A stretch of 53,620 nucleotides of DNA from a virus (lineage: Duplodnaviria > Caudoviricetes), in IMG/VR virus record IMGVR_UViG_3300030085_004328, positions 1 through 53,620 of that record. One strand, given 5' to 3'. This document shows positions 6,601 through 41,900 of the stretch, one piece after another; position 1 is the stretch's first letter; each line of letters begins with the position of its first letter. The position numbers were made by a program, and so were the translations under genes. The notes beneath the pieces were generated by a model that was given only the letters and a program-made list of their open reading frames with translations, had not been told where the DNA came from and made no database searches.

Positions 6601-8738
6601 GTGGTAGAAGGAGTATCATCGACAATAAGTTTGCGATCTTCATTACCTATAAATGCTTGTGGAACTGCTAAACTTCCACCGTCAGTACCAGCTCTAAGAT
6701 TTTCAAATGTTATTCCTTGACCGGATTTAAGTCCATGTGCAGTAGAAGTCTCGAAAGTAACGATTCCTGTTGTGCTATCATAAGTTTCGGTGAGAATATT
6801 AACTCCCTCAGTGGATATTGATTCAGGAACGCAAGTGAATCCTAGTCCAGTAATTTCAATACCATCATCTTTAGATAGATCGTGATCATATCTTGTAGTA
6901 ATAGTTGCAATTCCTGTGCTGGAACTATAGTCAATACTATCAATTGGAGTTGTATAACCAATAGAAACTCCACCCCAAGTTACATTATTAATTACGCAAC
7001 GAACAATATCTTGAGCATAATCAACGGCACGAATTGTTTGAGTTACCTCATCAATTGGGGAGTTATTAAGAGTAGCGGCAGCGAAGGAAGAAATACCAAC
7101 TTGAGCTAAAGTCTCATCAAAGTAAGTCTTACCGGCAGCAACGACTTTTGTAGATCCACCTCTTGTAATATCATAACAAACTGCCTTAAGAATATCTCTT
7201 ACGTCTCTTGAGCAACGGAAAGTATCAAGGTTAATACCAGTGATGATTCCAACAACACCAGAAGAAGAACCAGCACCAATAGCACTTGTAGTAATACCTG
7301 AAAGATAACTGATGCTATTACCAACACCAGTACACCATCCTGTTCCTACAATAATTCTATTGTTAGAATCATCATAAAGATATTTCTTATTTCTTCTTGT
7401 AGAATCAATTGCTTGAGTATAATCATCATAGTAAGTATTATATTTTTCTACTGTTCCACCAGTATCATAGGTGTGAGTAATTGAAGAAATAGCAACATTT
7501 GTCTTAAAGGTATTATCATCAACATATTCTGTTACTGTGAAATATTCTCCGTTTGTACCATCTGGGAAAATACTAGTTGTAACTCCACTACCTCCAGGGC
7601 AGGTAAATGCAATTCCAGCTAGTTCAACAATATCACCAGTTGTTACACCATGACCAACAGAGGTAACGGTAGCGATACCAGTTAGATTATCATAAACAAA
7701 TCCAGTAACGTTTGTAGTACCACCAGCACCAACACTAGCCCATGGTCTCTGGTTGATTACATATGTTGCGATACCAGCAGCACGATCAATAGCAGCAACA
7801 GTAGCGTCAGCAATGCTATAACCATTTGAATCAGTTCCTGCTACGTGGACAAGAGCTCCACCAGAGAAATATGATAATGCTGCACCGACTGATTTTAAGT
7901 TACCAGTAGATTTTAAATCATATGCAATTGATTTGAATATATCTTTAATATCATCTCTACAGTTCTGTGCATCATCTGGATTTCCTTCAGCATCAGTAAC
8001 AACAAATGCTGGATTCTTATAGTCAGTGCTTGTAATATAACCAACCGCTTCTTGTGCAATAAAATCAAGGTTTGCTTCAAGAGCAGTTGAACCATCTTGT
8101 GCAAGGTGTGTTCCTGCATAACCACTATAACCGCTGGTCAGGAATCCAACTGCTTCTCTTGCAATAAAGTCTGAGTTGACGCGAATGAGTCTTGCTGCGT
8201 CGAAATATCTATCGGATGCTACACTCTCAAGAGGTCTGAAAGCAACTGCAGCAGATCCAGAATCCATAGATCCTGTGAATCCAAGGTCAGTTAAGTGACA
8301 TCCATCATTTACATGGAATAAATCTTTATCTGCGTTTGCAGGAGAAACAATACAGTTTCTTAGTTCAAGACCCTCTACTGATACGTTCTTTTCAAGTAGA
8401 ATTGGGTTTTGCTCAACATATACCCCAGGATAAACCTTAACAGTATCAAAGATTTCTGCAATCTCTGCAGCAGCTTTGATTGTTAGTTTTGCATCCTTTT
8501 CATTTAAACCAGTATTAGCATCATCACCTTCTTTACATACGAAGATAGTTTTACCTAGAGATCCTCCAGCACCTACTCGGATAACGCGAGTTGCGATTCC
8601 AACTCCTGCTGTATCTTGTTTTAAGAATACTTCTCCATCAAAAGCATTTACAGCTAACTCTCCAAGAGCAAGTTGTGCGGTAGTTGGGATTTTACCAGCT
8701 ACTGTTGACCTTTTTAAACGAATCTGAGGATCTGCCAT
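3612..8738 (-). CDS. Large tail fibre/appendage protein (1708 aa): fibre-anchor N-terminus, beta-helix-like segments, nested helical CxRD domains
   Basis: N-terminus IRLKRSTVAGKIPT...LALGELAVN..DG is a common phage fibre anchor motif. GDDANTGL...AKLTIKAA...VKVYPGVYVE is a pectin-lyase-like start. C-terminus HSFEYVGAG...YTSTDQAGNFRIG. GGAG RBS upstream. Confidence 0.85.
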   Translation of the reverse strand: MADPQIRLKRSTVAGKIPTTAQLALGELAVNAFDGEVFLKQDTAGVGIATRVIRVGAGGSLGKTIFVCKEGDDANTGLNEKDAKLTIKAAAEIAEIFDTVKVYPGVYVEQNPILLEKNVSVEGLELRNCIVSPANADKDLFHVNDGCHLTDLGFTGSMDSGSAAVAFRPLESVASDRYFDAARLIRVNSDFIAREAVGFLTSGYSGYAGTHLAQDGSTALEANLDFIAQEAVGYITSTDYKNPAFVVTDAEGNPDDAQNCRDDIKDIFKSIAYDLKSTGNLKSVGAALSYFSGGALVHVAGTDSNGYSIADATVAAIDRAAGIATYVINQRPWASVGAGGTTNVTGFVYDNLTGIATVTSVGHGVTTGDIVELAGIAFTCPGGSGVTTSIFPDGTNGEYFTVTEYVDDNTFKTNVAISSITHTYDTGGTVEKYNTYYDDYTQAIDSTRRNKKYLYDDSNNRIIVGTGWCTGVGNSISYLSGITTSAIGAGSSSGVVGIITGINLDTFRCSRDVRDILKAVCYDITRGGSTKVVAAGKTYFDETLAQVGISSFAAATLNNSPIDEVTQTIRAVDYAQDIVRCVINNVTWGGVSIGYTTPIDSIDYSSSTGIATITTRYDHDLSKDDGIEITGLGFTCVPESISTEGVNILTETYDSTTGIVTFETSTAHGLKSGQGITFENLRAGTDGGSLAVPQAFIGNEDRKLIVDDTPSTTTFVARIGKNRAGGLTINYNTEQTKVFRRYTPSVGINSAVYDRLTGLTTIGFSDPVGTDSSDNDPAYIENDGTVRLEELVFQCDSGGGLSTQFFPSGAVGYDFPVEKVGGDRYQDSANLIAGNKLEITDKALANIAIVHPDFFFPGDSSITTTSRYKDAYRLIQQNKGEIVGTAWTTMVTEYPGLSGTEDKCKRDLNYLVDAVSTDIFTSGNNYSIAFAKKYFDASGNFLTNGLDGEEVQSILAFDTARDQMKLAIANQLSTKDTTVSGGSSYFGDGSPAIGNSETYSCSDVQASIDNLVGIATEAIESENLNVINGLTINYGNFPGGEFKCRRDIAYVVDSLIDDLRTDSNKNIRETTRKYFDAVGNPISGGLIGEESESVTAFSSIAAYSKLAINNVLNYRDTTITADPAVGVNTDPLGCADIRSSIDSLIGIVTTHVGAGNLNNFPTLSIASSITVNAGVSTLDHTYIGGGSAFVGITTTVFPDGTFGNIFNVDSIVGPTTFTTNFGPTEISHTYDDNTGNILKFQPFTKNSDYAGGQIKDESIQYDPRVNSNTSPAGCKNVQSAIDTVIGIVTAIVGGGITAIQSPVNPTGITTRFEGFDGAGYNPAEGEDADPNFSPGCGQIFKGPYVRNCTNFIFDSIGLKIDGFAAEPGDEDEIGVQGSMSVDSYTQYNQRGIGVSITNGSYAQLVSIFTICCDEAIVTASGGQCDLTNSNSSFGRIGLISNGISDATTKSIYRQTGKVVTAADANDITLEVSGLGTQRPYDGQVYYIDKLYYSLNTITVTNGGSGYNTPNDAIITIDAPTGPNGIGAQAIPTVENGAVTAVTLINTGTQYETRTPNVSIAAPPAGVTATAEVTKTDPLYYKVGSATFPRAGVSTITAVAGLNNDVSVGSTVYLSRQSLQITSSHSFEYVGAGNDIFTARPGVGGVTIQENEVVKEEGGEVIYTSTDQAGNFRIGDGVTINQATGTITGRTYLKSLFNNVTPFILALGD

Positions 8739-12355: not shown

Positions 12356-12362
12356 TATTTAT
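12356..12362 (-). promoter_or_regulatory. Late promoter ATAAATA overlapping the S8 protease stop codon
   Basis: Upstream of the 111-aa gene. Confidence 0.6.
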
Positions 12363-14287
12363 GATCTTTCAAATGATATGCCTTCAAATTCTACATTTTC
12401 TATCGAGGCCTCATCATCATTAGCATATGGATTATAAAGAACGCGAGAATCTGCACCTCTTAAATTATATTGTCCAGTCCAATATGCGGTATCGGTGTCG
12501 TCACCATAAGGACTCCACCATCCATCACCAGTGTTAACATCATTAGTTTGTAGTAATAATGTACCATTATCTTTAATCCAATTTTTTACATCTCTAGATG
12601 TTGCTGTTGGTCTTATTTGTAAATATAACGCAACAATACCAGTGACGACTGGAGCAGCTGCAGATGTTCCATTGAAATATGCGTCATAAAATCTAGAATC
12701 ATCATATCTTTCATAATCTTCATAAGCAGCGACTCCATTAGTTCCTGCAGCTAATGTTTCATCTGCTGGAGCCCAGATATCAATACCAGGCCCATTATTT
12801 GAATATGTTGCTTGATATTCCGCACCACCAGTTGTTACTGAATCTTCTATTGCACCAACACAAACTACTGGATGAAAATCTTTATCAGATTCAAATCCAA
12901 TACCTTGTGGATTCATCCAGTCTCTGTGGTTGGATGGACAAGCAGTTCCTGGAAACTCTGATCTGGGATCGCCAACATTATACCATTCATCTTCCATGTA
13001 ATTCAGACGATCTACATCATCTGCACCAACTCCAAGTCTTTGGTTATTATTTCCTGCTGCAGCAATAAAAATTACTCCACTTTGCATCAATTCATCTGCT
13101 GCAGTATTTGTTGATGAAGATCTTGATGACGTTGACCAAGATCTGTACGCACCACTAATTTGATTATTAAGACCATCTTTCATCGCAGTAACTTGGTCAG
13201 TCACTATCGCATTACCAGAAAATGTCCCAGTAGATCCTCTAAATTTATAATCAACTAAATCAGTAGATTCAAATCCCGCTTGATATCCCCAACTTCCATT
13301 AACCACAGTTGGATTTTTTACACCAGTTTCTCCATTTACTGGTTTATTTTTATGCCATATTTTCATAGCATCATATGATGCTTCAATACTAAATCCCGCA
13401 GAATCTGAACCAACACAGGACATATTCCATATATTTGCTTCAAAAGCATTACCAAAGTTTTTTCCTGCAGCTAATGATGCACATGCAGTTCCATGTCCAC
13501 TATTTAATCCATTAGTCCCATCAAGAGAATTTCCAAGAGCGTTATTTTCTGTATATGTAGAGGGAATTGTTACCGTTCCTTCAGATTGAAATGCTGCGGA
13601 TCTATTAGAAGAATTTTCCCACCAGTCTTCAGCAGAAGCAGTTGTTATTCCAGTTCTACCATCTGCTTTAGTGTAAGTAAAACCATTAGATATAAAATAA
13701 TCAGGGTCGATATAATATGGACCATCAAGAATAATATCTCTTACTCTTGATTTTCCATCCTGGTCCATAAACTCTGGATGATATTGTTGAGTTCCACTAT
13801 CCTGAATAACAATATCCACATGTTTTCCAGTAAGACTGTATGATACATCCTTTGTTACTAAATTAACCGCACCAAGGTTATCGCTAAAAAATTCTCCACT
13901 TTTTCTAACCGTTGGTCTAGCCACACCCCAATTTGATCTATCCAATTCTGCAGAAGTTGGACCTGTAGCTGGTATAAATTGAGAAACTAAATCTCGATAG
14001 AACTTTACATTTTTCTTAAATCTTTTTGTAGCAAAATCTGGTTTTGGATATGCATCTGGATTGTGTGTTGGAGATAATTCAATCCATTTAACATGTGGAT
14101 GATCAGCAATTTCTGCTGCTTCCTCTTCTGTTAATTCATAAGTTCCTCTAGTAGGACTGTGGTTTTTTGAATCTGCACATGTAATCCGTCTATCGGGAAT
14201 ACCATCTTGATTGGAATCTACAATTAGAGCATCGTGAATCTCAGACCAATATTCTGGACTCGTAACAGCTAATGTGTATTTTTTCAT
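12359..14287 (-). CDS. Subtilisin-like serine protease (peptidase S8) with probable N-terminal prodomain
   Basis: Intact catalytic motifs: Asp (DIVIQDSG), His (GHGTACASLAAG), oxyanion Asn (AAAGNN), Ser (FNGTSAAAPVVTG). Start overlaps the upstream stop (TGATG). Confidence 0.93.
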   Translation of the reverse strand: MKKYTLAVTSPEYWSEIHDALIVDSNQDGIPDRRITCADSKNHSPTRGTYELTEEEAAEIADHPHVKWIELSPTHNPDAYPKPDFATKRFKKNVKFYRDLVSQFIPATGPTSAELDRSNWGVARPTVRKSGEFFSDNLGAVNLVTKDVSYSLTGKHVDIVIQDSGTQQYHPEFMDQDGKSRVRDIILDGPYYIDPDYFISNGFTYTKADGRTGITTASAEDWWENSSNRSAAFQSEGTVTIPSTYTENNALGNSLDGTNGLNSGHGTACASLAAGKNFGNAFEANIWNMSCVGSDSAGFSIEASYDAMKIWHKNKPVNGETGVKNPTVVNGSWGYQAGFESTDLVDYKFRGSTGTFSGNAIVTDQVTAMKDGLNNQISGAYRSWSTSSRSSSTNTAADELMQSGVIFIAAAGNNNQRLGVGADDVDRLNYMEDEWYNVGDPRSEFPGTACPSNHRDWMNPQGIGFESDKDFHPVVCVGAIEDSVTTGGAEYQATYSNNGPGIDIWAPADETLAAGTNGVAAYEDYERYDDSRFYDAYFNGTSAAAPVVTGIVALYLQIRPTATSRDVKNWIKDNGTLLLQTNDVNTGDGWWSPYGDDTDTAYWTGQYNLRGADSRVLYNPYANDDEASIENVEFEGISFERS

Positions 14288-16186: not shown

Positions 16187-19009
16187 TCAAGTTGGGTCGT
16201 GATAAGCAGACCACTCAGCGAATACACTGAATTCATCGTTCGTATCATGAACAATTTTGAATTCTACGATATCAAATTGGTTTGCTGCACCTGTCGTTGT
16301 ACCAACTGGTTGAGCACCATTTCTCCAAAGATAATTCGTTGGTGTCTGACCATTAACTTTAAGCACAACGTTACCAGTGTCCCAGTCATTGGAAGCATCA
16401 GTAAATGTGATTAAAGTTGCTCTAACCATATATTCACGATTTGTAGGAAGACTAGCAAGTTCAATATTTGTTATTCCATTACTAGCCTCGCCACCAATTA
16501 CGGAAGGTGCTGTAGCAAAGTCCCAATATAATGTATCTGTTGAACCAGCAGTAAATGCTACACCAGTAATAGCATTGAAGTCTCCTGAATTTCGTAGATT
16601 AGTACTAGTATCTAATTCGTTATAAACGAATCCAGTAAATGTTGAAAGTCCTGCTCTAAATGTAAGTGCATTGAGATTTCCTGCAACATCTACAGACTTG
16701 TTCGCGTCGATATTCGCGGAGAATGTAGCAGTTTCAGCAACATTAAGAACATCTAGATCTGTAGTTCCATCAACATCGAGATTTCCATCAGCATCAATAT
16801 TTGATGCAAAAGTTGTTACACCAGCGATGTTTACATTATCAAGATTTGTATGACCATCTACATCGATATCACCAGCAAGATCAATGTCCTCATTAGCAAT
16901 GAGATCTCCAGTGATTGTGGTAACACCAGCAACACTTACATTATCTAAGTTTGTATGACCATCTACATCTAAATCTGCTTGAGCAGTGATGTTACCTGAT
17001 ACCGTAAGTCCAGTTAATGTACCAAGAGATGTAATATTTGCTTGCGCTGCAGTATTAACTGTTCCATCTAAATTTCCTGTAAATGTGGTAGCCGTGATAG
17101 CACCAGAAACATTTACGTTATCTAAATTTGTATGACCGTCTACATCAATATCACCAGTGAATGTAGAAATACCAGAAACACTTAGAGTGTCTGCAGTGAA
17201 TGTTCCATATACTGTTGCACCTGATCCAGCAGTTGCAAATTTTTCTACATTATCGTAGTAAAGTCTTACTGGACCATTTGTAACAAATCTAGCTTTTGTT
17301 TCGGTAACATAATCGGAAGGGTTCGGTCCTGAACCTGATGCATCGGCAATAATAACTTCGTTACTACCAGCAAGGTATACATTTCCAGTACCTCCTCTTT
17401 CAAAGAGATATGAATTACTTCCATCATGTGCAATCGCAAAATCAAGACCAGCTCCAAAATAAATACCAGAACCATCTTGTTCTGTTAATCGGATATCACC
17501 ATTAAAAGTAGATACTCCAGAAACATTTAGATCATGAGTTAAGATACCTGTTTCTAAAACTGTTGTTAGACCAACAGTAGCAACACCTGCAATACTTACG
17601 TTATCAAGATTAGTATGACCATCTACATCTAAGTCACCATTAGCATCGATATCTCCACCAAATGTAGAACTAGTAGAAACATCTAATCGAGTTGAGAAAG
17701 TAGTTCCAGTAACAGTAGCTCCGGCACTAATAGTTTCAAACTTCTTAGAACCATCATAGTAAAGTTCTGTTGAACCATTGGCTGTTGCTGCGAGTGCTGC
17801 TTCACTACTGTTTACTCTAAGTTGTAATCCTAAAGCACTGTTTATGAATAAATTAGATACTGAGTTAGTATTTTTTATGTAAGAATCGCCGTCATGATAA
17901 ACTTCTAAGTCACCACCATCACCAAATGCTGCCCTAGCATTATCCCTAAAGAATGCTGTACTACCAAATCCTACGGTTGCGCCAGTTCCAGTAATAACAT
18001 CACTACTAAATGTAGCAGTTTCAGCAACATTAAGAACATCTAAATCTGTAGTTCCGTCAACGTCTAGATCACCATTAGCATCAATAGCATTAGAGAACGT
18101 TGATACACCAGAGATTGCAACGTGATCAAGATCTGTTTGACCATCTATATCTAAGTCTCCACTGGCACTGATGTTTGATGAGAATGTAGCAGCACCACTA
18201 ACTTGAACTCCTGCAAGTGTTCCTACATTTTGAAGAGAAGAGTTAGTTACAGCCGAACCTACAGCAGTTGATGAAAGAACATCTGTTCCTTCAATCTTAA
18301 AGGTCTTACTAGCAGCAAGATCAATATTCTCTGAGAATGTCCAAGAATCTGTAGAGTTAACCCAATTAATTGTTTTATTTCCTTCTCCAGACTCTAGCGT
18401 GATACCACCACCATCGGAAGATGCATCAGTGAGAGAACCACTAGCAAGAATAATATTCTTGTCGTCTACAGTTAAATTAGTAGAGTTTACAGTCGTTGTA
18501 TCACCATCTACTTGAAGATCACCTTGAATTACAACTGTTCCTGTGTTTGTCCCAATACCAGCAGGATCAATTGTAATTGTTGATGAACCACTAATTGTAC
18601 TTGAAGAAATACGAATAGCAGATCCTTCTGCTCCTGTTGATAATAATAAAGCCGTTAAAATTCCAGCGGCTGCTACTGTATTTGCCGCAGTGTGACCAAA
18701 TATATCAATATCAGCATTCAGATCAATATCATCACCAAATGTAGAGATTCCACTTACATTTAGACTCGTAAAATCATTTGGTGCATTAGCAATTGCAGAT
18801 TCTATAGTTGCGGTTGTAGTTGAATCTATACCAGTAATATTTTTTAGTTCAAATGAAGAACTAACAACTTCTGTTACTCCAATTGAAACCGAGTCACCAG
18901 CAAGGGATCCAGACGCGGTAATAATACCTGAAATGACGATGCCTTTGTCGAAAACGGGGGCACCATTACCATCTCTATTTCTTATAGTATCAACAAATAG
19001 CTGGGACAT
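16187..19009 (-). CDS. Tail fibre protein (940 aa) with DLDVDGxTxLD repeats
   Basis: LTVDDKNIILASG...DGGGITL and LYYDGSKKFET / LYYDNVEKFAT motifs, repeated shaft units, globular C-terminal tip domain. Confidence 0.85.
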   Translation of the reverse strand: MSQLFVDTIRNRDGNGAPVFDKGIVISGIITASGSLAGDSVSIGVTEVVSSSFELKNITGIDSTTTATIESAIANAPNDFTSLNVSGISTFGDDIDLNADIDIFGHTAANTVAAAGILTALLLSTGAEGSAIRISSSTISGSSTITIDPAGIGTNTGTVVIQGDLQVDGDTTTVNSTNLTVDDKNIILASGSLTDASSDGGGITLESGEGNKTINWVNSTDSWTFSENIDLAASKTFKIEGTDVLSSTAVGSAVTNSSLQNVGTLAGVQVSGAATFSSNISASGDLDIDGQTDLDHVAISGVSTFSNAIDANGDLDVDGTTDLDVLNVAETATFSSDVITGTGATVGFGSTAFFRDNARAAFGDGGDLEVYHDGDSYIKNTNSVSNLFINSALGLQLRVNSSEAALAATANGSTELYYDGSKKFETISAGATVTGTTFSTRLDVSTSSTFGGDIDANGDLDVDGHTNLDNVSIAGVATVGLTTVLETGILTHDLNVSGVSTFNGDIRLTEQDGSGIYFGAGLDFAIAHDGSNSYLFERGGTGNVYLAGSNEVIIADASGSGPNPSDYVTETKARFVTNGPVRLYYDNVEKFATAGSGATVYGTFTADTLSVSGISTFTGDIDVDGHTNLDNVNVSGAITATTFTGNLDGTVNTAAQANITSLGTLTGLTVSGNITAQADLDVDGHTNLDNVSVAGVTTITGDLIANEDIDLAGDIDVDGHTNLDNVNIAGVTTFASNIDADGNLDVDGTTDLDVLNVAETATFSANIDANKSVDVAGNLNALTFRAGLSTFTGFVYNELDTSTNLRNSGDFNAITGVAFTAGSTDTLYWDFATAPSVIGGEASNGITNIELASLPTNREYMVRATLITFTDASNDWDTGNVVLKVNGQTPTNYLWRNGAQPVGTTTGAANQFDIVEFKIVHDTNDEFSVFAEWSAYHDPT
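16722..18150 (-). repeat. Intragenic repeats: 4x DxDVDGHTNLDNV, 2x DVDGTTDLDVLNVAETATFS, 1x DIDGQTDLDHV
   Basis: Visible in the translation. 16722-16799 and 18009-18086 match at 71/78 nt by my manual count, with the first 34 nt identical. Confidence 0.9.
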
Positions 19010-20777: not shown

Positions 20778-21197
20778 TTATTTATTATCTTGTTGCTGTT
20801 TTAAAAGTTTTGCTAGATCTGCGGTAGATCCAACAAAAAGAGCATTGGTAACATTTGTGGGTCCTTTTGAAGACTCTTCTTCAACATCTTTCAGTTTTTT
20901 CTGAAGATCCAATAATTTATCTGTTGCATCAGCAACATTTTTAATTAATTGACCAGCAACTTCATATGCTCTCGCTTGCTCCGTTTCCTGGGCTAATTCA
21001 AGGATACCATTAATTGCTTCCTGACCTTTTTCAATTAAAGAATAAAGATTTCCCCTTGTATAATCATAGTCTTTTTTTATATCATTAGAAGTTGCTTTTA
21101 TTTCTTCAATTTTCTTTTCAGGGGTTGCGGGTTCTACTTCAACTATGTCCGCATCGACATTAAAGGTATCATCTAGTTCTTCAAACTTATTACTCAT
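20778..21197 (-). CDS. gp16: Terminase small subunit
   Basis: DYDYTRGNLYSLIEKGQEAINGILELA...RAYEVAGQLIKNVAD...NNALFVGST-like motif (TNALFVGSTADL). Follows gp15. ATG at 21197 (ATGA overlap) preferred over the track start at 21203. Confidence 0.93.
   Translation of the reverse strand: MSNKFEELDDTFNVDADIVEVEPATPEKKIEEIKATSNDIKKDYDYTRGNLYSLIEKGQEAINGILELAQETEQARAYEVAGQLIKNVADATDKLLDLQKKLKDVEEESSKGPTNVTNALFVGSTADLAKLLKQQQDNK
20779..20785 (-). promoter_or_regulatory. Late promoter ATAAATA overlapping the gp16 stop
   Basis: About 25 nt upstream of the 108-aa gene. Confidence 0.65.
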
Positions 21198-23716: not shown

Positions 23717-24535
23717 TCATCCTATCATATCTAAAGGAGGCATCTCATAATAAGTGGGCATTTGTTCCATGATAGTATCAATCTCTTTTTGAGCATCATC
23801 AAATAATTGTCTACCATTTAGTTCTATGCCGCCAGGAAGTTTTACTCCCTGGAATTTTATGAGGTTCATCCCCCATTGACGCTTGATCAGAGAAGTTAAG
23901 TATCTCTTTAAGAATGAATCGTTATATACTTTTGAATATGATGATGGATCGGCAATAGCATAAGCATCCAACACCAAATATTCATCAGCAACTGCTTCAT
24001 TCCAATCCATATCAATATATAATCTACCTTTTCTCTGATTAAATCTAATCTTCTTCTGAGTAGTAAGTAAATGATCGATATCTGATAAAAATGTCTGAGT
24101 CATCTGATACGTTAATAACTCAGTAGATCCCAAATAATGAATATCATTTAAGAATAATTGATATTTGAAGTTAAACATCCCACTAGAGATGTTATTGGAT
24201 CCATTGAAATGAAGAATCCTCTCCACACCGATTACTCCATCGGGGAGAGGTAAGTATCTAGAATCTTCTTCATAATCATAATCAATACCACCATCACTTA
24301 CTGTAGTAGTGGTTATTCCTGCTGTTCCTTTTCCTCTATCAATATCAGTTTGAGTGAGTTTATACTTCAAGTAAGTTTTTTCCACTCCATCAAAATGACG
24401 CTCTTGGAAAAATTGAAGTGCATCATCCAGGAGATCATCTATTTGCTCATCTGCAACGTTAATTTCCAATACAGGAGCACCTAGTTGTCTCTTACAGTAA
24501 TCTATTAGGGTTTGTCTGGATGATGGTTGAGCCAT
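23717..24535 (-). CDS. gp13: Neck protein
   Basis: LIDYCKRQLGAPVLEINV...ERHFDG...KRQWGMNLIKFQGVKLPGGIELNG...PPLDMIG. Confidence 0.96.
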   Translation of the reverse strand: MAQPSSRQTLIDYCKRQLGAPVLEINVADEQIDDLLDDALQFFQERHFDGVEKTYLKYKLTQTDIDRGKGTAGITTTTVSDGGIDYDYEEDSRYLPLPDGVIGVERILHFNGSNNISSGMFNFKYQLFLNDIHYLGSTELLTYQMTQTFLSDIDHLLTTQKKIRFNQRKGRLYIDMDWNEAVADEYLVLDAYAIADPSSYSKVYNDSFLKRYLTSLIKRQWGMNLIKFQGVKLPGGIELNGRQLFDDAQKEIDTIMEQMPTYYEMPPLDMIG

Positions 24536-24699
24536 TAGATTATTTTAAGGGTTTCTTGCTGTTTTAAGTACAACTTAACGTAACTTTTAGTTACATCTCG
24601 GAGAACTTTGATATCATCTATACTATCTATATCTCTAGAAAGTTTTTCATATTCAAAGTTCTTAGATAGTTTCTCAAGTTTGATTTCATCAGGATTCAT
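24535..24699 (-). CDS. 54-aa helical protein, NblA-like (absent from the ORF track)
   Basis: Manual translation MNPDEIKLEKLSKNFEYEKLSRDIDSIDDIKVLRDVTKSYVKLYLKQQETLKII. GGAG RBS upstream. Fills the gap exactly and its TAA overlaps the gp13 ATG (TAATG). The ORF is well supported; the NblA resemblance is by eye only. Confidence 0.7.
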   Translation of the reverse strand: MNPDEIKLEKLSKNFEYEKLSRDIDSIDDIKVLRDVTKSYVKLYLKQQETLKII

Positions 24700-24967
24700 T
24701 TTGTAACTCCTTTACTTTTTGTTGCAATTCTAACACGGCAATTTTTAAAAATTCAATATCATGTGAAATTTGATTTCTTTCTTGCTCTTCTTTCCACTTT
24801 ACTTCCCTCATGGTCAAGTATGCTTCATAATCACCATTATTTGTGTTGATTACAGCACCAGTGTGTTCATCTTTAAGAAGATCGTTGTAATCCTTTACAA
24901 GGGCAACACCTTTTTCTTCTTCATCATCATCATCAATATCAATATACTGATCAAATTCTTCATCCAT
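24689..24967 (-). CDS. Small acidic coiled-coil protein that follows the VrlC-like gene
   Basis: 92 aa. LLKDEHTGAVINTN...Y..Y motif, C-terminal heptads, poly-acidic N-terminus. Confidence 0.8.
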   Translation of the reverse strand: MDEEFDQYIDIDDDDEEEKGVALVKDYNDLLKDEHTGAVINTNNGDYEAYLTMREVKWKEEQERNQISHDIEFLKIAVLELQQKVKELQNES

Positions 24968-24969
24968 AA

Positions 24970-27477
24970 TTAAGCAAGCGCAATTACTCTAAGGTCTTTT
25001 AATCTAACTGGATACGTTGTATCTGTTGTAGATGCACATAATTTTATACCAAAAGCTCTAAAAGATGGGAGTTTATTGATACTAAATTTAAGTTCTTGGA
25101 AGTCTAATTCATCTGATTGGAATCCTTTACTATCAGTTTTTGATAGTCTTTCATCTGGAGTTCCATCACACTTAGCAAGATCTTCAACATTTCCTTGATT
25201 ATCAATATTATCAAATCCTGGGAAAGGATAATAAATTAGGTCTTCCTTACCATCATCATCAATAGCATAGAAGGCTCTTAAATCACTAGTAGTATTCACA
25301 TACGCAGTAACATAAACCTGAAGAGATGTTGCGGCATTCTCTAGAGTTATAGGTCTAGTAGCATAAACAAAAGCATGAGGATCATTTTCTAAGTCCGCAG
25401 TACGCTCATCATTAGCATAATCCGTAATAGGATTATTCATTCTATTGCCGATTAAAATAACAGAACAACGGTCTAAATCTATCATTGGAGATAGTGTGGG
25501 AGACGTTGTAGTTAAATTGACGGATATATTGAGGGATTTATTTCCTTCAATTCCATCAATTCCATCAAGAAGTTCTGTTTCATTAATGCGAGAACAGATT
25601 ATTCTAGGAGAATCTAAGAAATGCTCTTCCTCACCAGAAAGTTTTTCAAAGTCTGTAGCGAGATATGCTTCTTGATCACCACCAACACTTCTTCCAGTAG
25701 TAGTTCTTAGATTAAGTTCTACCTCAGTACCATTAACTTCTGTTGCGGAAATTTCTGGGTCGATAATCTCAAATTGAATATTCTGAGTAGCGGTAATATC
25801 GTCACCACCACTAGACTTAGTTTCTCTGAAGTGTAAATCTGGATATCCAAAAGGACTATCTGATCTATCTATTCCAGACTCTTGAGGATCAATTCTTATA
25901 TGATAAAAATCTAGATCGATTGGATTATCTACGGTTGCATCTTGCAATTCATGAACTTTATTAATTCTTCTGAGAGAAACTCCATTAAGTTCGTATTTAA
26001 CAACGTCAACTCCTGCTTCATAAGAAGATCCTGGAGTATCATCAATTTCTCTTGTAATTCCTGTTAGATTAAGTCCATCAATTCCAGTGTATGCAATTAT
26101 TTCTTCCTCAATTTGAATATATCCTGGATTTGTTGAAGATACACCAACATTTTCAAAATTAGCAAAAATACTCAATCCAGTTTCATCATCGATAAGTATA
26201 TCATCCAGAGGAATTGGAGCTGTAGAATCTTCCCCAATATCTGCCGTTGTGTCTACACTAGGATGATCTGGATCAACATCATCAATTGAAACAACACTTT
26301 CTGGAGCATACATTCCATGATTTGGATGATTTACCTTGATATGCAAACCATCATGTATAACTGTAGTATCACTAACTGTTAATCCACCAGAAGATGCGTT
26401 TATTTGGGTTGTGATTCCACTAGAATTTTCGTAAGTAACGGTACTTCCAGCACCAGTTTTGAAATTTCCTTGAATATCATCAACAATAATTTCATTTATG
26501 TCTCCAAGTTCACCAATTGATAATCTTAGGTTTCTTCCTAATCCCGATCCAATCGTATTGGCTGTTACTAGGTCTCCAACTTGATATCCAGATCCACCAG
26601 CAACAATAGTTGCACCAACAGCAACTCCATTTTGAACAGTTAAATTGCAAGTAGCGTTTCTTCCTTCTCCTGTAACTTTTGTTAATGCAACATCAAAATA
26701 TGTTAAACCTCCAATGGACGGTGTGAGTCCAATACCTGCATTAAAGATTGATAGTGATGATGCGGCACCAGCATTTGAAATATAATTTCCTGTAACGTTA
26801 GAATTTTCCTGCTTTACCGTAACACCAGTAGTAAATCCAACTTCATTTAATCCACCACTTAAAAGTAATCTTACTTGTCTAGATTCCATTTCAAATGCAT
26901 CATTATCCAAAATAGAAACTTGATCGTTTCCTACGGATAACTCTGGATTATAGAAGTTTATATTTCCTGAATTTTCTAAGAAGTTAGCTCTGTACAGAGT
27001 AAACTTCATATCCTCCCTTTCTGATGGTGTCCATGTTGCACCATTTTGAGATCTAAAGAATACTCCAGAGTTTGGGTTTGATGAAACATATACCGACTTA
27101 GAATCGTCTTGATTTGCTTTAGTAACGTCGGGTTCTCCCATTTTTGCAACCCACACCGAATAGTCTTTACTATTGGCGGTAACAACAAGGGAATGAAAAG
27201 TTTCTCCCTTTAAAAATACTGGAGATTTAAATTTAAAGTTGGTTGGAAGATTCGCAGCAGGATCTGCGGTTACATCACTTGGTTCTAGTGTAACCTGGGA
27301 AAATGGATAAATGTCTGCTGATGATGGAACTCCATTTACTGTAGGTCTTAATTCTACAGAAACAGGTAAACGGCGATCACCTTCATAAAAGTAGATATCA
27401 ACAGATGTCGCAAAAATCCCTTTAGGATTATCAACGTAAAATGTTTGTGCTAACGGATCAATTAGTTTATCGGACAT
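24970..27477 (-). CDS. Virion structural protein corresponding to the C-terminal part of a VrlC/DUF4815-like tail protein
   Basis: Begins with DPLAQTF. FRSQNGATWTP...EDMKFTLYRANF. Ends LKDLRVIALA. These motifs normally lie in the same polypeptide as the upstream gene. Confidence 0.85.
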   Translation of the reverse strand: MSDKLIDPLAQTFYVDNPKGIFATSVDIYFYEGDRRLPVSVELRPTVNGVPSSADIYPFSQVTLEPSDVTADPAANLPTNFKFKSPVFLKGETFHSLVVTANSKDYSVWVAKMGEPDVTKANQDDSKSVYVSSNPNSGVFFRSQNGATWTPSEREDMKFTLYRANFLENSGNINFYNPELSVGNDQVSILDNDAFEMESRQVRLLLSGGLNEVGFTTGVTVKQENSNVTGNYISNAGAASSLSIFNAGIGLTPSIGGLTYFDVALTKVTGEGRNATCNLTVQNGVAVGATIVAGGSGYQVGDLVTANTIGSGLGRNLRLSIGELGDINEIIVDDIQGNFKTGAGSTVTYENSSGITTQINASSGGLTVSDTTVIHDGLHIKVNHPNHGMYAPESVVSIDDVDPDHPSVDTTADIGEDSTAPIPLDDILIDDETGLSIFANFENVGVSSTNPGYIQIEEEIIAYTGIDGLNLTGITREIDDTPGSSYEAGVDVVKYELNGVSLRRINKVHELQDATVDNPIDLDFYHIRIDPQESGIDRSDSPFGYPDLHFRETKSSGGDDITATQNIQFEIIDPEISATEVNGTEVELNLRTTTGRSVGGDQEAYLATDFEKLSGEEEHFLDSPRIICSRINETELLDGIDGIEGNKSLNISVNLTTTSPTLSPMIDLDRCSVILIGNRMNNPITDYANDERTADLENDPHAFVYATRPITLENAATSLQVYVTAYVNTTSDLRAFYAIDDDGKEDLIYYPFPGFDNIDNQGNVEDLAKCDGTPDERLSKTDSKGFQSDELDFQELKFSINKLPSFRAFGIKLCASTTDTTYPVRLKDLRVIALA

Positions 27478-27512: not shown

Positions 27513-27767
27513 TTATTTATTTCTCTTTAGTGAATTAAGTTCTGTCTTAAGTTCTTTAATAGCCTCAACTAAGACGGGTATCATCTGAATATAATCGACA
27601 GATAAGTACCCATCTTCTTCATATACCATTTCTGGAAATTCTTTTTGAACCTCCTGGGCTATGAGTCCATACTCATAACCCTCTCTTCCATGATGCTCTT
27701 TCATTTCGTCTTTCCACTCATAGAGTGTTCCATTAAGTTTACATACTTTAGTCAAAGGAGAAGTCAT
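27513..27767 (-). CDS. Stand-alone peptidase S74-type chaperone body lacking the SDxxLK cleavage motif
   Basis: LTKVCKLNGTLYEWK...YGLIAQEVQKEFPEMV...YLSVDYIQMIPVLVEAIKELK aligns by eye with the S74 domain of 1059..3254. Confidence 0.88.
   Translation of the reverse strand: MTSPLTKVCKLNGTLYEWKDEMKEHHGREGYEYGLIAQEVQKEFPEMVYEEDGYLSVDYIQMIPVLVEAIKELKTELNSLKRNK
27514..27520 (-). promoter_or_regulatory. Late promoter ATAAATA overlapping the stop of the S74 ORF
   Basis: About 37 nt upstream of the 835-aa gene. Confidence 0.6.
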
Positions 27768-27775
27768 AATATATT

Positions 27776-34399
<6,624 letters not shown>

Positions 34400-35981: not shown

Positions 35982-35988
35982 TATTTAT
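35982..35988 (-). promoter_or_regulatory. Late promoter ATAAATA overlapping the gp7 stop
   Basis: About 23 nt upstream of gp8. Confidence 0.7.
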
Positions 35989-38900
35989 GAAAGATAATTG
36001 GAGGCTTTTAATGGATTCTTTCTTCTCAAGATAGGTGATGTTTCAATACCAATAATACCATTGTCTCTCTTGATATCATAAGACTCTGGGAAGGGTCTTA
36101 CGACATTATCCAGTCTTCCCCAAGAGAAGTTTGCAAATGTTTGTCTAGAGAGGAATGAAGAAAGTCCAAGTTGAGAATAATCTTCAACAACAGTAACAAC
36201 TTTAGTATTGTCTTCGATAATCAATGTTGCTCCATCGGCAACAGTTGTAGAATTTCCAGATCCAACAGAATAAGAACCAAGTCTTGTTAGACTTGCAATG
36301 AAGTCATCACTGAATATTACGATTGGAGTTCCAGGAATAATATCATGAACTTGATATACATTATCAATGAATTGATTTCCTTCAACCAAGTCAACTCCAT
36401 CCACTTCAATTGAAGTAACACCATATCCAACTGTTGTTGCATTTCCAACCGTGGAATCTCTTATAGTAAAGAAGTCGCCAGTTCCGATTCCACTGTAATC
36501 AATTGTGTTTCCAGTACCAACAATTGTTTCATCTTTTAAAGGTGAGTTTTCTGGAATAGCAAATTCAAACACAAGACCTTGAGAAGATCCTGCTCCAATT
36601 GTTGTTGTTCCAACTCCAATAACTTCACCAAAGTCTCCTGCAAAGTCAACTCTGAATACTGTTTCCGATTTTGGAGTTGGAGGTGTAATAAGGACTGGTG
36701 GTGGGTTATTATCATCATATCCAGTTCCACCAACAGAAATGTTAATGGTTGTTATCTTACCTGATGCGATAGCAGCAGTAGCTTCTGCTTGAGTTCCACC
36801 GTCTTCTTTTGGCGCTCCAATAGAAACCGTAGGAATTTTAAAATATCCGTCTCCTGTATTGGTTAGAGATATTTGAGTAACAATTCCAGCAGTTACCGAA
36901 GCAGTCGCTACTGCTTCGTTAGTTTCGTCTTGGTCAATAATATCAACAGTATTTACATAATTTAATCCTGGGTTTTCTTTTACATTATCAAAGAAGGTTT
37001 TTGCACCTTCAATCCAAATTTGAGTGCTTGCAGCGCCAACATCATAAATGATATTGGTTAAAGGAAGAATTGCTGCTTCATAGATATCTCTTGCTTTGGT
37101 AACTTCTTCACCGTCAATAATAAGGTCAGTAGTTGCTCGACACCAGTTAACTGGTCTTTCGACAAATTGATCATTACTGATTCCAACACCACCATACAGA
37201 TAAGTATCAACAGAGTCAGTAGAAGTAACTGCTTTAACAGATCTATCTGTTTGTCTTAGATCAATATCATCTCCACCAATTGTGAGAAGATCTCCTGGAG
37301 AAACTGTCTCAAGAATATCCACAAATTCAACATCTATATCTCCAGTTCCTCTATAGAAGATAATTTTGCAAGTATCTCCAATCTTAGGAGCTTCAGTAAA
37401 TCTAAGTGTACTACCACCTGGGAATACATATGCTTCTCCAGGAACCTGAAGAACATCATTAATAAAGACAAGGAGTGTTGCCTGAACATCAATTAGAGAT
37501 CCTTTAGCAGCCTTAATAGATGTTCTAACACCATCAAATTTAATAGCAAATCTGGTTGCATCTCCATTAAACTGAGAACTGATATCATCAACGACTTGGA
37601 GGTCTCCGATTGTCCATCCAGTAAATTGATCAGTTTGAGTCTGGGTAATATAGAAGTTGAATTCCTCAAAATCTAATGTTGTTGGTAGGGTAAATGTTGG
37701 TTTAGCAGAAGGAGACTGAACCACTGGAGCATATGCCGCACCATCACCTATAATTGTTGTAACAATTCCAACAAGATTGTAAATCGAAGATACTACATCA
37801 GAGCAACTATCAAGAGTGTAGGAGGATCCATTATCATAATCAATTGATGTGTCTGTAATCTGAGTAACAGAAACTGCAATACCTTGATATGATGTAGGTA
37901 AAGTTTGGTTATTTATGACGTATGTTGAGATACCAGCGAGATAATCATAAGTTGCAATAGTTTCTGTGGTTTCTCCAGTCACATAATTTAGAGGACCATT
38001 CCAATACTTGTTACCTGCTGCAACTGAATTAAAGTTTCCTCCAAAGAAAAGATCATTTGCTAATGCATCAACAATGAAACCTGTGTCTCTTTCGCACTTA
38101 GTTTCATCATAATCTGGGTTAGAAAGTAGAGAGGGGTATGTAGCTGTTGCATATCCGACAGCTTCCTTAACAAGGAATTGTCTGTTAGAAGCGAGAAGAT
38201 TACCAGCATCAGCAAATCTTCCATGATACATGTAAGGAATTCCATCAGTTCCACCAACAGAAACTGTTAGTACGTTGTTGATTTCATATCCATATCCAAC
38301 ATTCGTAATATTAAAGTCAGTTACACTAGATCCTTCTCCAACAACAACACTAACCTTTGCAGCTCTTCCTCCAGTATCTCCGATTGAAGTTGTAGAGTAT
38401 GATGTTGGAAGATTATCATATGGGAGGGGATCATCAAAATCAACAGTTAGATATTTCGCAACTTTACCACCTCTAGCATAGAAGTGATCGAGTGTAGAAA
38501 TACCAGTGTTAACCTCAAATTCAGTATCACTGTTAACTCTTCTTACGCTTGTAAATTGAGAAGCAGGATCAGACTGACTATCAGAATTATTTTTAAGTCT
38601 TGGAGCAATAATTATACCCTGAACAGTTCCACCACCTACAAAATAATTTTGTTGTGTTGTAACTCCAATATTTACTTCAAATTCCGTAGCACTGTTAACC
38701 GCAATAACTCCTGTTCCATTGTATGCAGGATCAGTTGTTCTTGGATATGTATGTACAGTTGCTCCATTATCTTGAGTGCATGTAAATGCAAGTCCAGATA
38801 GAATAACTTGACTGAGTTTTCCGAATGAAGTATATCCATGACCCACAGAAGTGGTAACAGTCATAATTCCACTTATATGATCATACTGAGCGGTGGATAC

Positions 38901-41900
38901 TCCTAGTGGTGGAGCATAATCGCAAGTCATTGCGATTCCAGACAAGACAACTTCATTACCTACCGATAATCCATGTGCTGTAGATGTTGTAACAGTTGTT
39001 AGACCTGTTATTGAAGTGTAACCAACATTAGATACATCTCTAGGTGCATAGAAGACTTGAGGATTTGTAACAGCCACTCCAGTAACTCTTCCTCTAGTAA
39101 CAAGAGCTGTTCCTATTGCAACTTTACTTGATGCCTCTACTGTCTCTTCGCGAATATAAACTTCAATGTTAGTCTGAATACCAGTTCTGTATCCACCACC
39201 TGCGTTAGAAACGTTGATAGCACTAATAGTTCCTGCAGAAGAAACTGTAGCGGTTCCAGCGGCAGATACTAGAGACTGATAACCAAATCCCTTTGTAGAT
39301 CCAACAGAAACTATTCTTCCCCCAACAGGAAGACCTTTAATAGCAATATCATCTTCTCTATCATATTCTCCCTCATCAAAAATAATATTTGTTGCTCCAC
39401 CATCTTCTTCTAAAGTATAGTTTCCAGCAATATCAACAAGAGTTTGATCTACTTTAGGAGACTGGAATAAATCATTTACAGTAATAATAGCATTACTTGC
39501 TGCTACTCCATCAACACTTTCTCCACCAACTTTCAATTCAAAAGAACTCTTAATTCCAGTAAATTGATCTTCAATACCATCAAAAACATAGTTCTTATAG
39601 TATGGATCATTTGTAGTATCAACTGGTGCATTTCTCATGAATGATCTTCCACTAAATCTAGAGAAAGTCGTAATTCCAGTGAAATCTCTCTGATCTGGAC
39701 GATTATCTGGAGATCCTACTGGTGTTTTTCCAAATGGAGCATCAGCAAAACTGATAGTATTTTCAACAATATTATAATTACCAATAATTTTAGTTATCAA
39801 TGAGTATTGAGCATGATCTGCTAGTTTTGTACCGAGAAGTGCTCTCTGAACGTACATATCATTATCAGAACCACCATATCCAACAATGGATACTCTTACA
39901 ATTTCATCATCAATTTGGAGGAAATCTCCACTGAAGAATCTTTCTGGTTGTTCAGTTAGAGTAAGAATGTCTTGAACAGTTGTAAAGGTATTACCAACTC
40001 CAGTTGTAGTTGCAGTAGAAACAATAGGAGATTGAATCATATTATCAATAGTAATCAGAGTCTTAGGATTCTGATTTTTTGATGTAAAGTAATGATCTGA
40101 TCCAACGCCAACATCAATTATATTCAAAGGTGTAGGTGTTAGTGCTAAAGCGTCTGTAGCACTAGCCGCCACTTTAACAAGAAGTTCATCCTGTTTAATG
40201 ATGAATAATGTGGGTGGTAATTTATTAGTTACTCCAATTCCAGGAATATCTGTATAGGCTATTCCAATTGGTTCATTTAACACATCATAAGAATATACAA
40301 CTTCTTCTCCTGTTACAAAGAAGTGCTGAGGTAACTCAAAAGTATCTTCACTGATACTAGTAATAGCAACATTAGATCCATCGAATTTTTTCTGGAAGAT
40401 TGGATTTCCTTCATGGAACAATTCAAAGTCTCTTATCACTGCATTCTGCGTTCCTTGATAATCTGCATTTCCAGTCAGAATATCAGCATTGATCATATCA
40501 ATTTGAGCGTTACCCACTCTTTCATCTCTAATTCCAAGGTGTTGAGCATAAACTCTAACTTCACAATCAATTGGATCATTCGCACTAAAGTAAATTGTCG
40601 TAACTGTTCCTGCAACACCTGCAGTAACTACACCAACCTCACCATCACTGAATAGTTGACCATATTCTGAATAATATGCAGTTGTAGAAGATGAGACAGT
40701 TACTAACTCAGACAGTTGATACTTGCCATTAGTGGTGTCATCAACGCTAACAATGTAGTAACCACTGCTGTAATCGTCAATACCTAAAATTCCATTAAAG
40801 TGAGAAGATATTCCTGTACCATTTTGACTATCTACAGCATCAATTGATGTATAATTAGATTCTACAATAGCGGTAGTAAATTCTGTGCTTCCTTCAGTAG
40901 TAAATCCAGAAGGTTCGGATGCAAGAGATATTCTTAAAGAATTAACTTCAGCCGCTATTGCAGAATTATCTGGAATTAAATCAACTTTTACATTAGATCC
41001 ATCAATATAAGCATGATATGTTCCAATACCATCACTAGATAATGCATTTAAAGTGTCTGTGGTTAATTGACCATAATCCTGGAAAGTTACTTCCGATCCG
41101 TCATGAATTAGGCTAATTTCGTCTAATTCATATACACCACCACCTTCTTCAATTTGAACAAGTAGTTTAGAAGATCTGTAATCTGTGGGGATTGTTGCGA
41201 TCGTGGTAGTAGCACCAGAAGAAACGGTGCTATTTTCCACTTTAATATCAACAACATTACCAAATGCAGTGGTTCCAATTCCTGAAGTGAAATCGGAAAT
41301 ACTATGAGTGACGAAACTTAAATCATAATCATTAACTTCATATTTTTCTGGATAGAATCTTAACTGAGCTTCATCCTCAAACAGTGCAATATCAAAAGAT
41401 CCTAATTCATAAACAGTTTCTACACGTCCATATTGATTAATAAAGAATTCACTACCATTATGAATTGTTGTTACAATATATACTTGTCTTTGATTTGTAA
41501 ATCTACTATCTCTAGCAAATATTAAATATTTTCTAGCTCTAGACTCAGTTATTTTGAAAGTATCAATTACACTAAACTGATCTCCTCTTGGATCGCTATT
41601 GAAATCATCACTAATATCATCGATAACAAGAACTCTGTTACCAACAGACTTGTTAAAGTCTTGCAATTCTCTACTATTGAATACGATACCAGTGGAGAAT
41701 CTCTTACTACCAATAATGAGAGTTTCATCAACAGTAATATCAAAATCGAATACACAATTTGTATTAACTACTCTTGAGAAATCTGCGATAGAAACAAAAT
41801 CTCCTCCATCTTGAGATGTAGAAATTCCAGTGAATGAAAGATCTCTAGATTCTAATTGATAGTTACTAAATCTCTTCCATCCAACGAGATGATTAAGTCT

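Follow-up and report, generated by a model that had tools for sequence, protein, structure and literature searches.

What is encoded by the short open reading frame (ORF) that lies between a small virion-protein gene and the neck gene gp13 in the virus record IMGVR_UViG_3300030085_004328 (Duplodnaviria; Caudoviricetes)? The whole stretch of DNA that was analysed (53,620 nucleotides (nt), positions 1 to 53,620 of that record) is called the window here. In a preliminary description made from the sequence, this ORF of 54 codons (24535..24699, minus strand) was taken for a homologue of NblA, an adaptor protein through which the light-harvesting antenna of cyanobacteria is delivered to a protease. 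We conclude, with moderate confidence, that the gene most likely encodes a divergent NblA-like dimeric adaptor, and we regard the assignment to NblA as probable, not proven.

A conserved gene under purifying selection

A first question is whether the ORF is a gene at all, as it is short and has no Pfam match, and a chance ORF or a non-coding spacer between two structural genes could look the same. Residues 1-54 match positions 1-54 of the 59 positions of phrog_27081 (“unknown function”; E 3.9e-25), which is a full-length match. A search of 5.8 billion proteins returned 214 homologues of 29-95 residues, and a profile search of 1.84 billion representatives returned 219 clusters at 50% identity (E <= 1e-3), of which 81 were found at E <= 1e-10; the clusters of 10 distant representatives are named “hypothetical protein” only. 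At least 507 relatives were confirmed among 596 pattern matches in IMG/VR, and all locus statistics given here refer to the best 80 of these at least 507 loci, that is, to the closest relatives.

Among those 80 loci there are 67 distinct 153-nt sequences, for which the mean pairwise differences per site at codon positions 1, 2 and 3 are 0.263, 0.132 and 0.391. Codon pairs with a single difference are synonymous in 63% of cases. Of the five alternative frames, four are interrupted by a stop in each of the 67 sequences and one in 59 of them; of the 79 loci with enough upstream sequence, 75 have a Shine-Dalgarno-like motif ahead of the start. The 54-residue ORF is thus a true gene under purifying selection. 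The chance-ORF reading is refuted by this pattern of conservation, is further opposed by the breadth of the homologue family and by the confident predicted fold (see below), and retains next to no probability.

Metatranscriptome contigs (four runs of one study) cover the ORF and span the region from the 835-residue structural-module gene upstream of it to gp13. Because they lack strand information and DNA carry-over is possible, they were not counted as proof of transcription; the two differences that they show inside the ORF (24661 and 24673) are, by reading, third-position synonymous changes. The ORF was called “hidden” in the preliminary description, which holds only in the sense that it is short; homologues are annotated as coding sequences in the GenBank records of Bellamy, S-SM2, S-TIM5 and S-SCSM1.

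Predicted fold and comparison with NblA

AlphaFold2 modelling from alignment A2 (78 diverse family sequences) predicted a helix at residues 11-25, a loop at 26-29 and a second helix at 30-53, with a mean predicted local distance difference test (pLDDT) score of 93.6, which bears out the two helices that had been proposed from the sequence. One-residue insertions and deletions of family members fall in the predicted loop, and this loop coincides with the NblA loop as placed by the hhalign sequence alignment (see below). A model from the narrower alignment A1, in which residues 9-53 form one continuous helix (pLDDT 81), was superseded by the A2 model.

The predicted monomer was compared exhaustively with all 48,161 PDB representatives using VIA-align. 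NblA chains occupy rank 1 (1ojh_A, Nostoc PCC 7120; Z 5.9, root-mean-square deviation (rmsd) 1.2 Å, 47 of 52 residues aligned), rank 2 (2q8v_A, T. vulcanus; Z 5.7, rmsd 3.1 Å, 48 residues aligned) and rank 11 (3cs5_A, S. elongatus; Z 4.6, rmsd 1.0 Å, 43 of 48 residues aligned). Identity in the structural alignments with NblA is 8-16%, and the structural register (model residues 7..54 on chain residues 5..51) agrees with that of the hhalign sequence alignment. For a predicted model, the placement of NblA entries at ranks 1, 2 and 11 is hard to ascribe to chance.

Dimer modelling, which had been suggested as a check in the preliminary description, predicted a homodimer with a score of 0.78, against 0.01 for the best of three controls. 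The mark used for dimers was reached by 20 of 30 solved one-chain pairs and by 1 of 23 solved single chains, a calibration that applies only roughly here, since the dimer was modelled from our own alignment. Contacts agree by 100% between the dimer runs, with a partner pLDDT of at least 88. In the predicted contacts, residues of the long helix meet their own counterparts (33:33, 37:37, 40:40 and 44:44) and helix 1 packs against helix 2 of the partner chain, giving a four-helix arrangement in which the long helices run parallel. According to the papers on 1OJH and 3CS5, the functional NblA unit is reportedly a dimer with a four-helix arrangement; the dimer result may, in turn, stem from the model's memory of solved NblA dimers.

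Certain members of the family are longer than the 54-residue protein. P0121 (134 residues) is apparently a tandem of two diverged NblA-like units in one reading frame, and this fits a dimer as the working unit. Others carry a partner domain of approximately 70 residues, fused after the NblA-like domain (L104:1340..1744 (+), P0133 and P0138) or before it (P0156, with a trace in P0140). Pfam assigns no family to the extra domain in the fused and tandem members P0133, P0156, P0124 and P0121; the fused partner domain could point to the target of the adaptor.

At the level of sequence profiles, hhalign comparison of A2 with classical NblA gave a probability of 31%, P 5e-4 and a score of 22.3 over 53 collinear columns that span both proteins. 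Two other NblA alignments yielded the same alignment with probabilities of 23-30%, the scores over all three versions of the Pfam-positive NblA alignment being 22-23 (P 5e-4 to 9e-4). Controls with either profile reversed scored approximately 12, below the real score, and none of 200 column shuffles (mean 9.9, sd 2.4, maximum 18.7) reached the 20.6 that the real alignment scored on the same trimmed columns. This alignment places L8 and F15 opposite the L and F that are conserved in helix 1 of NblA. Two leads came from the ESM Atlas, to be read as leads only: a neighbouring viral cluster automatically named “Phycobilisome degradation protein family” (score 0.88), and the nearest Pfam-bearing cluster, in which 14% of members carry PF04485 (score 0.78).

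A number of results weigh against homology to NblA. The Pfam family PF04485 gives no match at E <= 10 for the 54-residue protein, which hence does not reach the Pfam gathering threshold of 25 bits. The 78 members of A2 match 37 families, and PF04485 is absent from the 25 listed, the other 12 matching at most one member each. In the complete records of Bellamy, S-SCSM1 and S-TIM5 it has no match, whereas the Ma-LMM01 nblA used as a control scores 52 bits; it is likewise without a match in the nearest of the virus records available for comparison (G001). Two hidden Markov models (HMMs) of our own do not list the ORF at E <= 10 when run with --max on 998 six-frame segments of the window: one was built from 169 classical NblA sequences (163 Pfam-positive, together with six plasmid-borne proteins annotated as NblA/ycf18 family) and the other from 55 T7-like viral NblAs. 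NblA was not retrieved from all PDB sequences by the family profiles (A1 and A2), and a phmmer search of the PDB sequences with the 54-residue protein gave chance-level matches only, none of them NblA. The hhalign probability of 23-31% compares with 85-88% for the bench-validated S-TIP37-type NblA in the same procedure, there is no similarity between the family and the T7-like NblA group (hhalign probability 0.11%), and the narrower alignment A1 gives no hhalign signal with NblA.

The conserved residues and the predicted structure also supply points against the assignment. In NblA, the N-terminal region binds ClpC, and L and K residues at the C-terminus bind phycobiliprotein. In the hhalign alignment, the 54-residue protein does not match the classical N-terminal motif of the LxLEQxF type position by position, and the EQ of LEQ and the C-terminal K/W of NblA are unmatched. 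A Z of 5-6 lies in the range of common arrangements for a helical hairpin, and ranks 1 to approximately 10 are tied within 1 Z, so that each VIA-align row by itself is weak. Foldseek found no match in PDB or BFVD at E <= 0.001. In the predicted dimer the long helices pair parallel and in register. Our literature search found no bench test and no bleaching, binding or timing data for the myovirus/TIM5-like branch. A scan of 185,579 species genomes with the two conserved motifs of the family retrieved two weak non-cyanobacterial stretches and no cyanobacterial copy.

The profile comparison that had been named as a check gave a divided answer: PF04485 and our own HMMs returned nothing, whereas the hhalign alignment, weak but full-length, beat all 200 shuffles. 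The proposal that the ORF is an NblA homologue consequently stands in part. The structural ranks, the predicted homodimer, the full-length hhalign alignment and the orthologues already labelled in print (see below) speak for it, while the silence of the HMMs and the low hhalign probabilities do not; on balance, we infer homology to NblA proper.

Setting in the structural block, mobility and timing

Pfam and PHROGs show the window to consist of structural genes of the T4-like cyanomyovirus type that follow one another on the minus strand, and its best DNA matches are Synechococcus and Prochlorococcus myoviruses (64-71% identity). It encodes the gp15 tail-sheath stabiliser, the gp14 neck protein and the gp13 head-tail adaptor, along with gp6-like and gp8 baseplate proteins and several giant fibre-like proteins. 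The features that bear on the NblA-like gene are as follows.

27514..27520, minus strand: ATAAATA, T4-type late-promoter-like, 37 nt upstream of the 835-residue gene
24970..27477, minus strand: 835-residue structural-module gene (phrog_358, E 3.4e-168), head of the putative transcription unit
24689..24967, minus strand: 92-residue gene upstream of the NblA-like gene (phrog_473 “virion structural protein”, E 8.5e-12)
24707..24712, minus strand: AAGGAG, Shine-Dalgarno-like, followed by a 7-nt spacer and the ATG of the NblA-like gene (24699..24697)
24535..24699, minus strand: NblA-like gene, 54 codons, ATG start, stop codon included (ORF listing, sequence, phrog_27081, purifying selection, AlphaFold2 fold)
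23717..24535, minus strand: gp13 neck / head-tail adaptor gene (phrog_211 head-tail adaptor Ad2, E 9.2e-44)
1060, 12002, 12356, 16179, 19546, 20779, 27514, 35982, 51672 and 51865, minus strand: ATAAATA sites from the motif scan of the window

The NblA-like gene overlaps both of its neighbours. The TGA of the 92-residue gene (24691..24689) falls inside its start, giving an 11-nt overlap, and base 24535 is common to its TAA (24537..24535) and the ATG of gp13 (TAATG). The ribosome-binding site, the overlap with the upstream stop and the TAATG shared with gp13 had all been given correctly in the preliminary description, as confirmed in every detail by the ORF listing and the sequence, with an identical peptide.

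The arrangement seen here recurs among relatives, and the count is biased towards gp13-adjacent arrangements because the 80 loci are the closest relatives. The gp13 gene overlaps the NblA-like gene by 1 nt in 49 of the 80 and starts 15 nt downstream in one; in 16, another gene intervenes and gp13 starts 395-412 nt downstream; gp13 is more than 2 kb away in two loci and absent from 12, of which 11 have at least 1 kb of room. The gap of approximately 400 nt in the 16 loci is explained by a gene for a protein of approximately 130 residues, annotated “L-shaped tail fiber protein assembly”, that lies just upstream of gp13 in Bellamy (L001 2673..3059), S-SM2 (L181 1086..1475) and P-TIM68 (L180 1090..1476) and is absent from the window. 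In S-SM2 and Bellamy the order is small virion-protein gene, NblA-like gene, tail-fibre-assembly-like gene and gp13. The 835-residue gene is syntenic in most related loci, and the 92-residue gene is present at the same site also in phages that lack the NblA-like gene.

Elsewhere, the NblA-like gene is missing or has moved. P-TIM68 keeps the small virion-protein gene and gp13 without it, and in P-SSM2, which also lacks it, a small hypothetical gene (T4-GC 115) adjoins gp13. The S-SCSM1 homologue adjoins a helicase gene, that of S-TIM5 lies in a tRNA-rich accessory island, and those of RN05-S, RB11-B, S-SKS1 and DSL-LC03 are tens of kb from gp13. The NblA-like gene is accessory and mobile, not core, and this mobility argues against a dedicated role in assembly.

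Such a role has nevertheless to be weighed, given the setting. The protein could be a small helical virion-assembly factor, a chaperone or accessory for neck, whiskers or fibres, with no role in the phycobilisome, its NblA likeness being convergence on a simple hairpin. This would accord with the start of gp13 at most 412 nt downstream in 66 of the best 80 IMG/VR loci (the 1-nt overlaps included), with the “virion structural protein” annotation of the upstream neighbour, with the tail-fibre-assembly annotation of the gene between homologue and gp13 in Bellamy and S-SM2, with the lack of any promoter or terminator signal parting the NblA-like gene from its neighbours, with the failure of every sequence-HMM test for NblA, and with the modest structural Z scores. 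An assembly factor would, however, be expected to accompany its client, and P-SSM2 and P-TIM68 lack the gene at the same site yet keep the flanking structural genes, while S-SCSM1, S-TIM5-type phages and several others carry it far from the structural genes. Where the main texts of the papers describe the virion proteomes of S-SCSM1 and S-SCSM2R, the homologue is not listed as a virion protein, and the structural ranking is headed by NblA chains and by no assembly protein. We consider an assembly role unlikely, and retain the reading of a divergent NblA-like adaptor.

As to timing, a scan for sigma-70-type promoters and terminators around the ORF found no more sites than in shuffled sequence, and a scan for TATAAATA gave 2 matches, below the chance expectation. 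The motif ATAAATA, which we take to be the T4-type late-promoter consensus, occurs 14 times in the window, fewer than in shuffles; the coding strand carries 12 of the 14, and the majority precede a start codon by 15-40 nt, which is where T4-type late promoters would lie. The nearest upstream of the ORF is that at 27514-27520 and the next downstream is at 20779-20785, with no terminator-like site between them. From these positions and the absence of a terminator-like site, we infer late co-transcription of the NblA-like gene with gp13-gp15, as the DNA reasonably suggests. The late structural operon and the coupling to gp13 that had been proposed for the ORF thus fit the sequence in gene order, overlap, want of a separating signal and ATAAATA positions, and late expression itself is presumed from these features.

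Taken together, the evidence suggests the following model. A 54-residue helix-loop-helix protein, from a phage-specific branch of very divergent NblA-like proteins, would act as a homodimer. By analogy with NblA, the dimer would bind host phycobiliproteins and pass them to the host ClpC-ClpP protease, so that the phycobilisome would be dismantled and amino acids released. The gene is an accessory insertion in a late structural block, between the small virion-protein gene and gp13. It would probably be transcribed from the late-promoter-like site upstream of the 835-residue gene, its translation keeping pace with that of the neighbouring genes. Production of the adaptor would then coincide with the peak demand for virion proteins, late timing being presumed here as above.

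The target of such an adaptor is a separate matter. An NblA-fold protein could use the host Clp machinery and be aimed mainly at proteins other than phycobilisome rods, for example other photosynthetic or metabolic proteins. According to one study, the NblA of phage S-TIP37 also directs the degradation of non-phycobilisome proteins, and nblA is found in phages and hosts without phycobilisomes as well (PMC12695635); in addition, the conserved surface residues of the present family differ from those of classical NblA. Host range speaks for the antenna: all 25 phage records with a match (25 of 25 isolate records) are Synechococcus phages or S-TIM-type cyanophages and none is a Prochlorococcus phage, and two Prochlorococcus phages, P-SSM2 and P-TIM68, lack the gene at the syntenic site, which fits a phycobilisome-linked role, although the numbers are small. 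Among gp13-matched records, the NblA-like gene is present in 0 of 8 Prochlorococcus phages compared with 25 of 123 overall, where approximately 1.6 would be expected, a difference that is not significant. A main target outside the phycobilisome seems rather improbable to us, and binding to phycobiliprotein and ClpC remains, by analogy, the presumed activity of the NblA-like adaptor.

A linked system had also been proposed, in which the ORF works together with phycobiliprotein-like domains of the virion proteins. This proposal fared poorly. A protein of 1708 residues, encoded 16 kb downstream, has a sub-threshold match to PF00502 (16.5 bits compared with a cut-off of 22.2; residues 865-909), and the matching segment finds no phycobiliprotein in the PDB sequences. 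The 835-residue, 92-residue, gp13, gp14 and gp15 proteins give no PF00502 match at E <= 10. Repeat motifs of the form k-C-x-R-D...vD were noted three times in the 1708-residue protein (3612..8738, minus strand) and once in a protein of 4442 residues (35985..49313, minus strand). Apart from the sub-threshold match and the CxRD motifs there is nothing to support the link; these giant proteins share with the 54-residue ORF a strand and a long structural block, nothing more. That an NblA-like dimer, made late and in fixed proportion to the neck proteins, acts on or with the CxRD repeats of the 1708- and 4442-residue virion proteins, chaperoning them or loading them with antenna material as a virion-linked phycobiliprotein system, is in our estimate very improbable.

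Further domains were observed in the large proteins of the block (all minus strand): an endosialidase-chaperone C-terminus (Peptidase_S74) in a protein of 731 residues (1059..3254), a subtilase domain (Peptidase_S8, E 6.9e-21) in one of 642 residues (12359..14287), a bactofilin-like repeat in one of 940 residues (16187..19009), DUF4815 in one of 2207 residues (27776..34399) and a YHYH domain in the 4442-residue protein.

Cyanophage relatives and known NblA proteins

The NblA label is already in print for close cyanophage relatives, and the present gene adds a member to a known group. The group comprises S-SCSM1 ORF237 (YP_010669930.1, “phycobilisome degradation protein”), S-SCSM2R ORF118 (“NblA”), S-TIM5 F417_gp189, Bellamy gp115 and S-SM2 SSM2_101, all of the same family (phrog_27081). 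These cyanomyovirus/TIM5-like proteins share 50-63% identity with the 54-residue protein over 89-100% of its length (61% over 100% of the query for S-SCSM1 ORF237), and have the same length and the same conserved core, FEYEK.SR.ID...KLYLKQQE. In Bellamy and S-SM2 the gene likewise lies between the small virion-protein gene and gp13; here it abuts gp13 with a 1-nt overlap, whereas they have the tail-fibre-assembly-like gene between, and the S-SCSM1 and S-TIM5 homologues, unlike the present gene, sit in unrelated neighbourhoods.

HHpred led to the prediction that S-SCSM1 ORF237, like seven homologues in myoviruses, is a distant homologue of NblA (PMC9602691), and S-SCSM2R ORF118 was annotated as nblA (PMC12801897). 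Nadel et al. reported unannotated nblA genes in eleven marine cyanophages, and marine viral NblAs score low against the PF04485 profile (bioRxiv 10.1101/494369); S-TIM5 is among those cyanophages (according to PMC9602691). In a test for restored bleaching, one of two marine viral NblAs gave a negative result (bioRxiv 10.1101/494369). Sullivan et al. (2010) had stated that nblA was unknown in marine cyanophages (PMC3037559); S-SM2, which belongs to their set, carries the NblA-like gene.

A viral NblA speeds infection and reduces light harvesting in marine Synechococcus, as demonstrated for T7-like podoviruses only (PMC12695635). The present family diverges much further and forms a branch of its own, which T4-like and TIM5-like myoviruses carry and which is abundant in viromes, as the IMG/VR loci and the clusters at 50% identity attest. 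If its members are working antenna-degradation adaptors, estimates of how far phage-driven antenna loss reaches would have to take in myoviruses as well, and the placement in a late operon would point to a timing unlike that of the podovirus gene. Among uncultured relatives, a 1-nt overlap with gp13 inside the late block is frequent; with regard to timing it is of modest interest. For the window alone, the gain is a better annotation and not a new kind of system.

Canonical NblA (PF04485; 1OJH, 2Q8V and 3CS5) resembles the 54-residue protein in its size of approximately 55-65 residues, in the helix-loop-helix with a collinear loop, in the superposition of the predicted monomer on 1ojh_A (1.2 Å over 47 residues) and in the predicted homodimer. 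It differs in that there is no Pfam- or HMM-level similarity between the two, in that its N-terminal LxLEQxF and C-terminal W-containing motifs are not kept, and in that the 54-residue protein ends where canonical NblA continues for approximately 10-15 residues.

The S-TIP37 NblA (MH540083.1, nt 12467-12706) is, like the present protein, small and phage-borne; its gene overlaps its neighbours in a marine Synechococcus phage, and the same role is proposed for both. It is clearly NblA-like by hhalign and without detectable similarity to the present family, as noted above, and its gene is part of a DNA-metabolism gene cluster (PMC12695635), whereas the present gene is in a late structural block. 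S-TIP37 provides the sole marine viral NblA with knockout and expression evidence, and function is proven for the T7-like branch only (PMC12695635). Marked divergence is also reported for the picocyanobacterial NblAs (for example, Synechococcus WH8109 NblA1-6), which are very divergent from the classical proteins and sub-significant with general NblA profiles, yet keep the dimeric fold (PMC12695635); it is next to these picocyanobacterial NblAs that the myovirus group is placed in the tree of the S-SCSM1 paper (PMC9602691).

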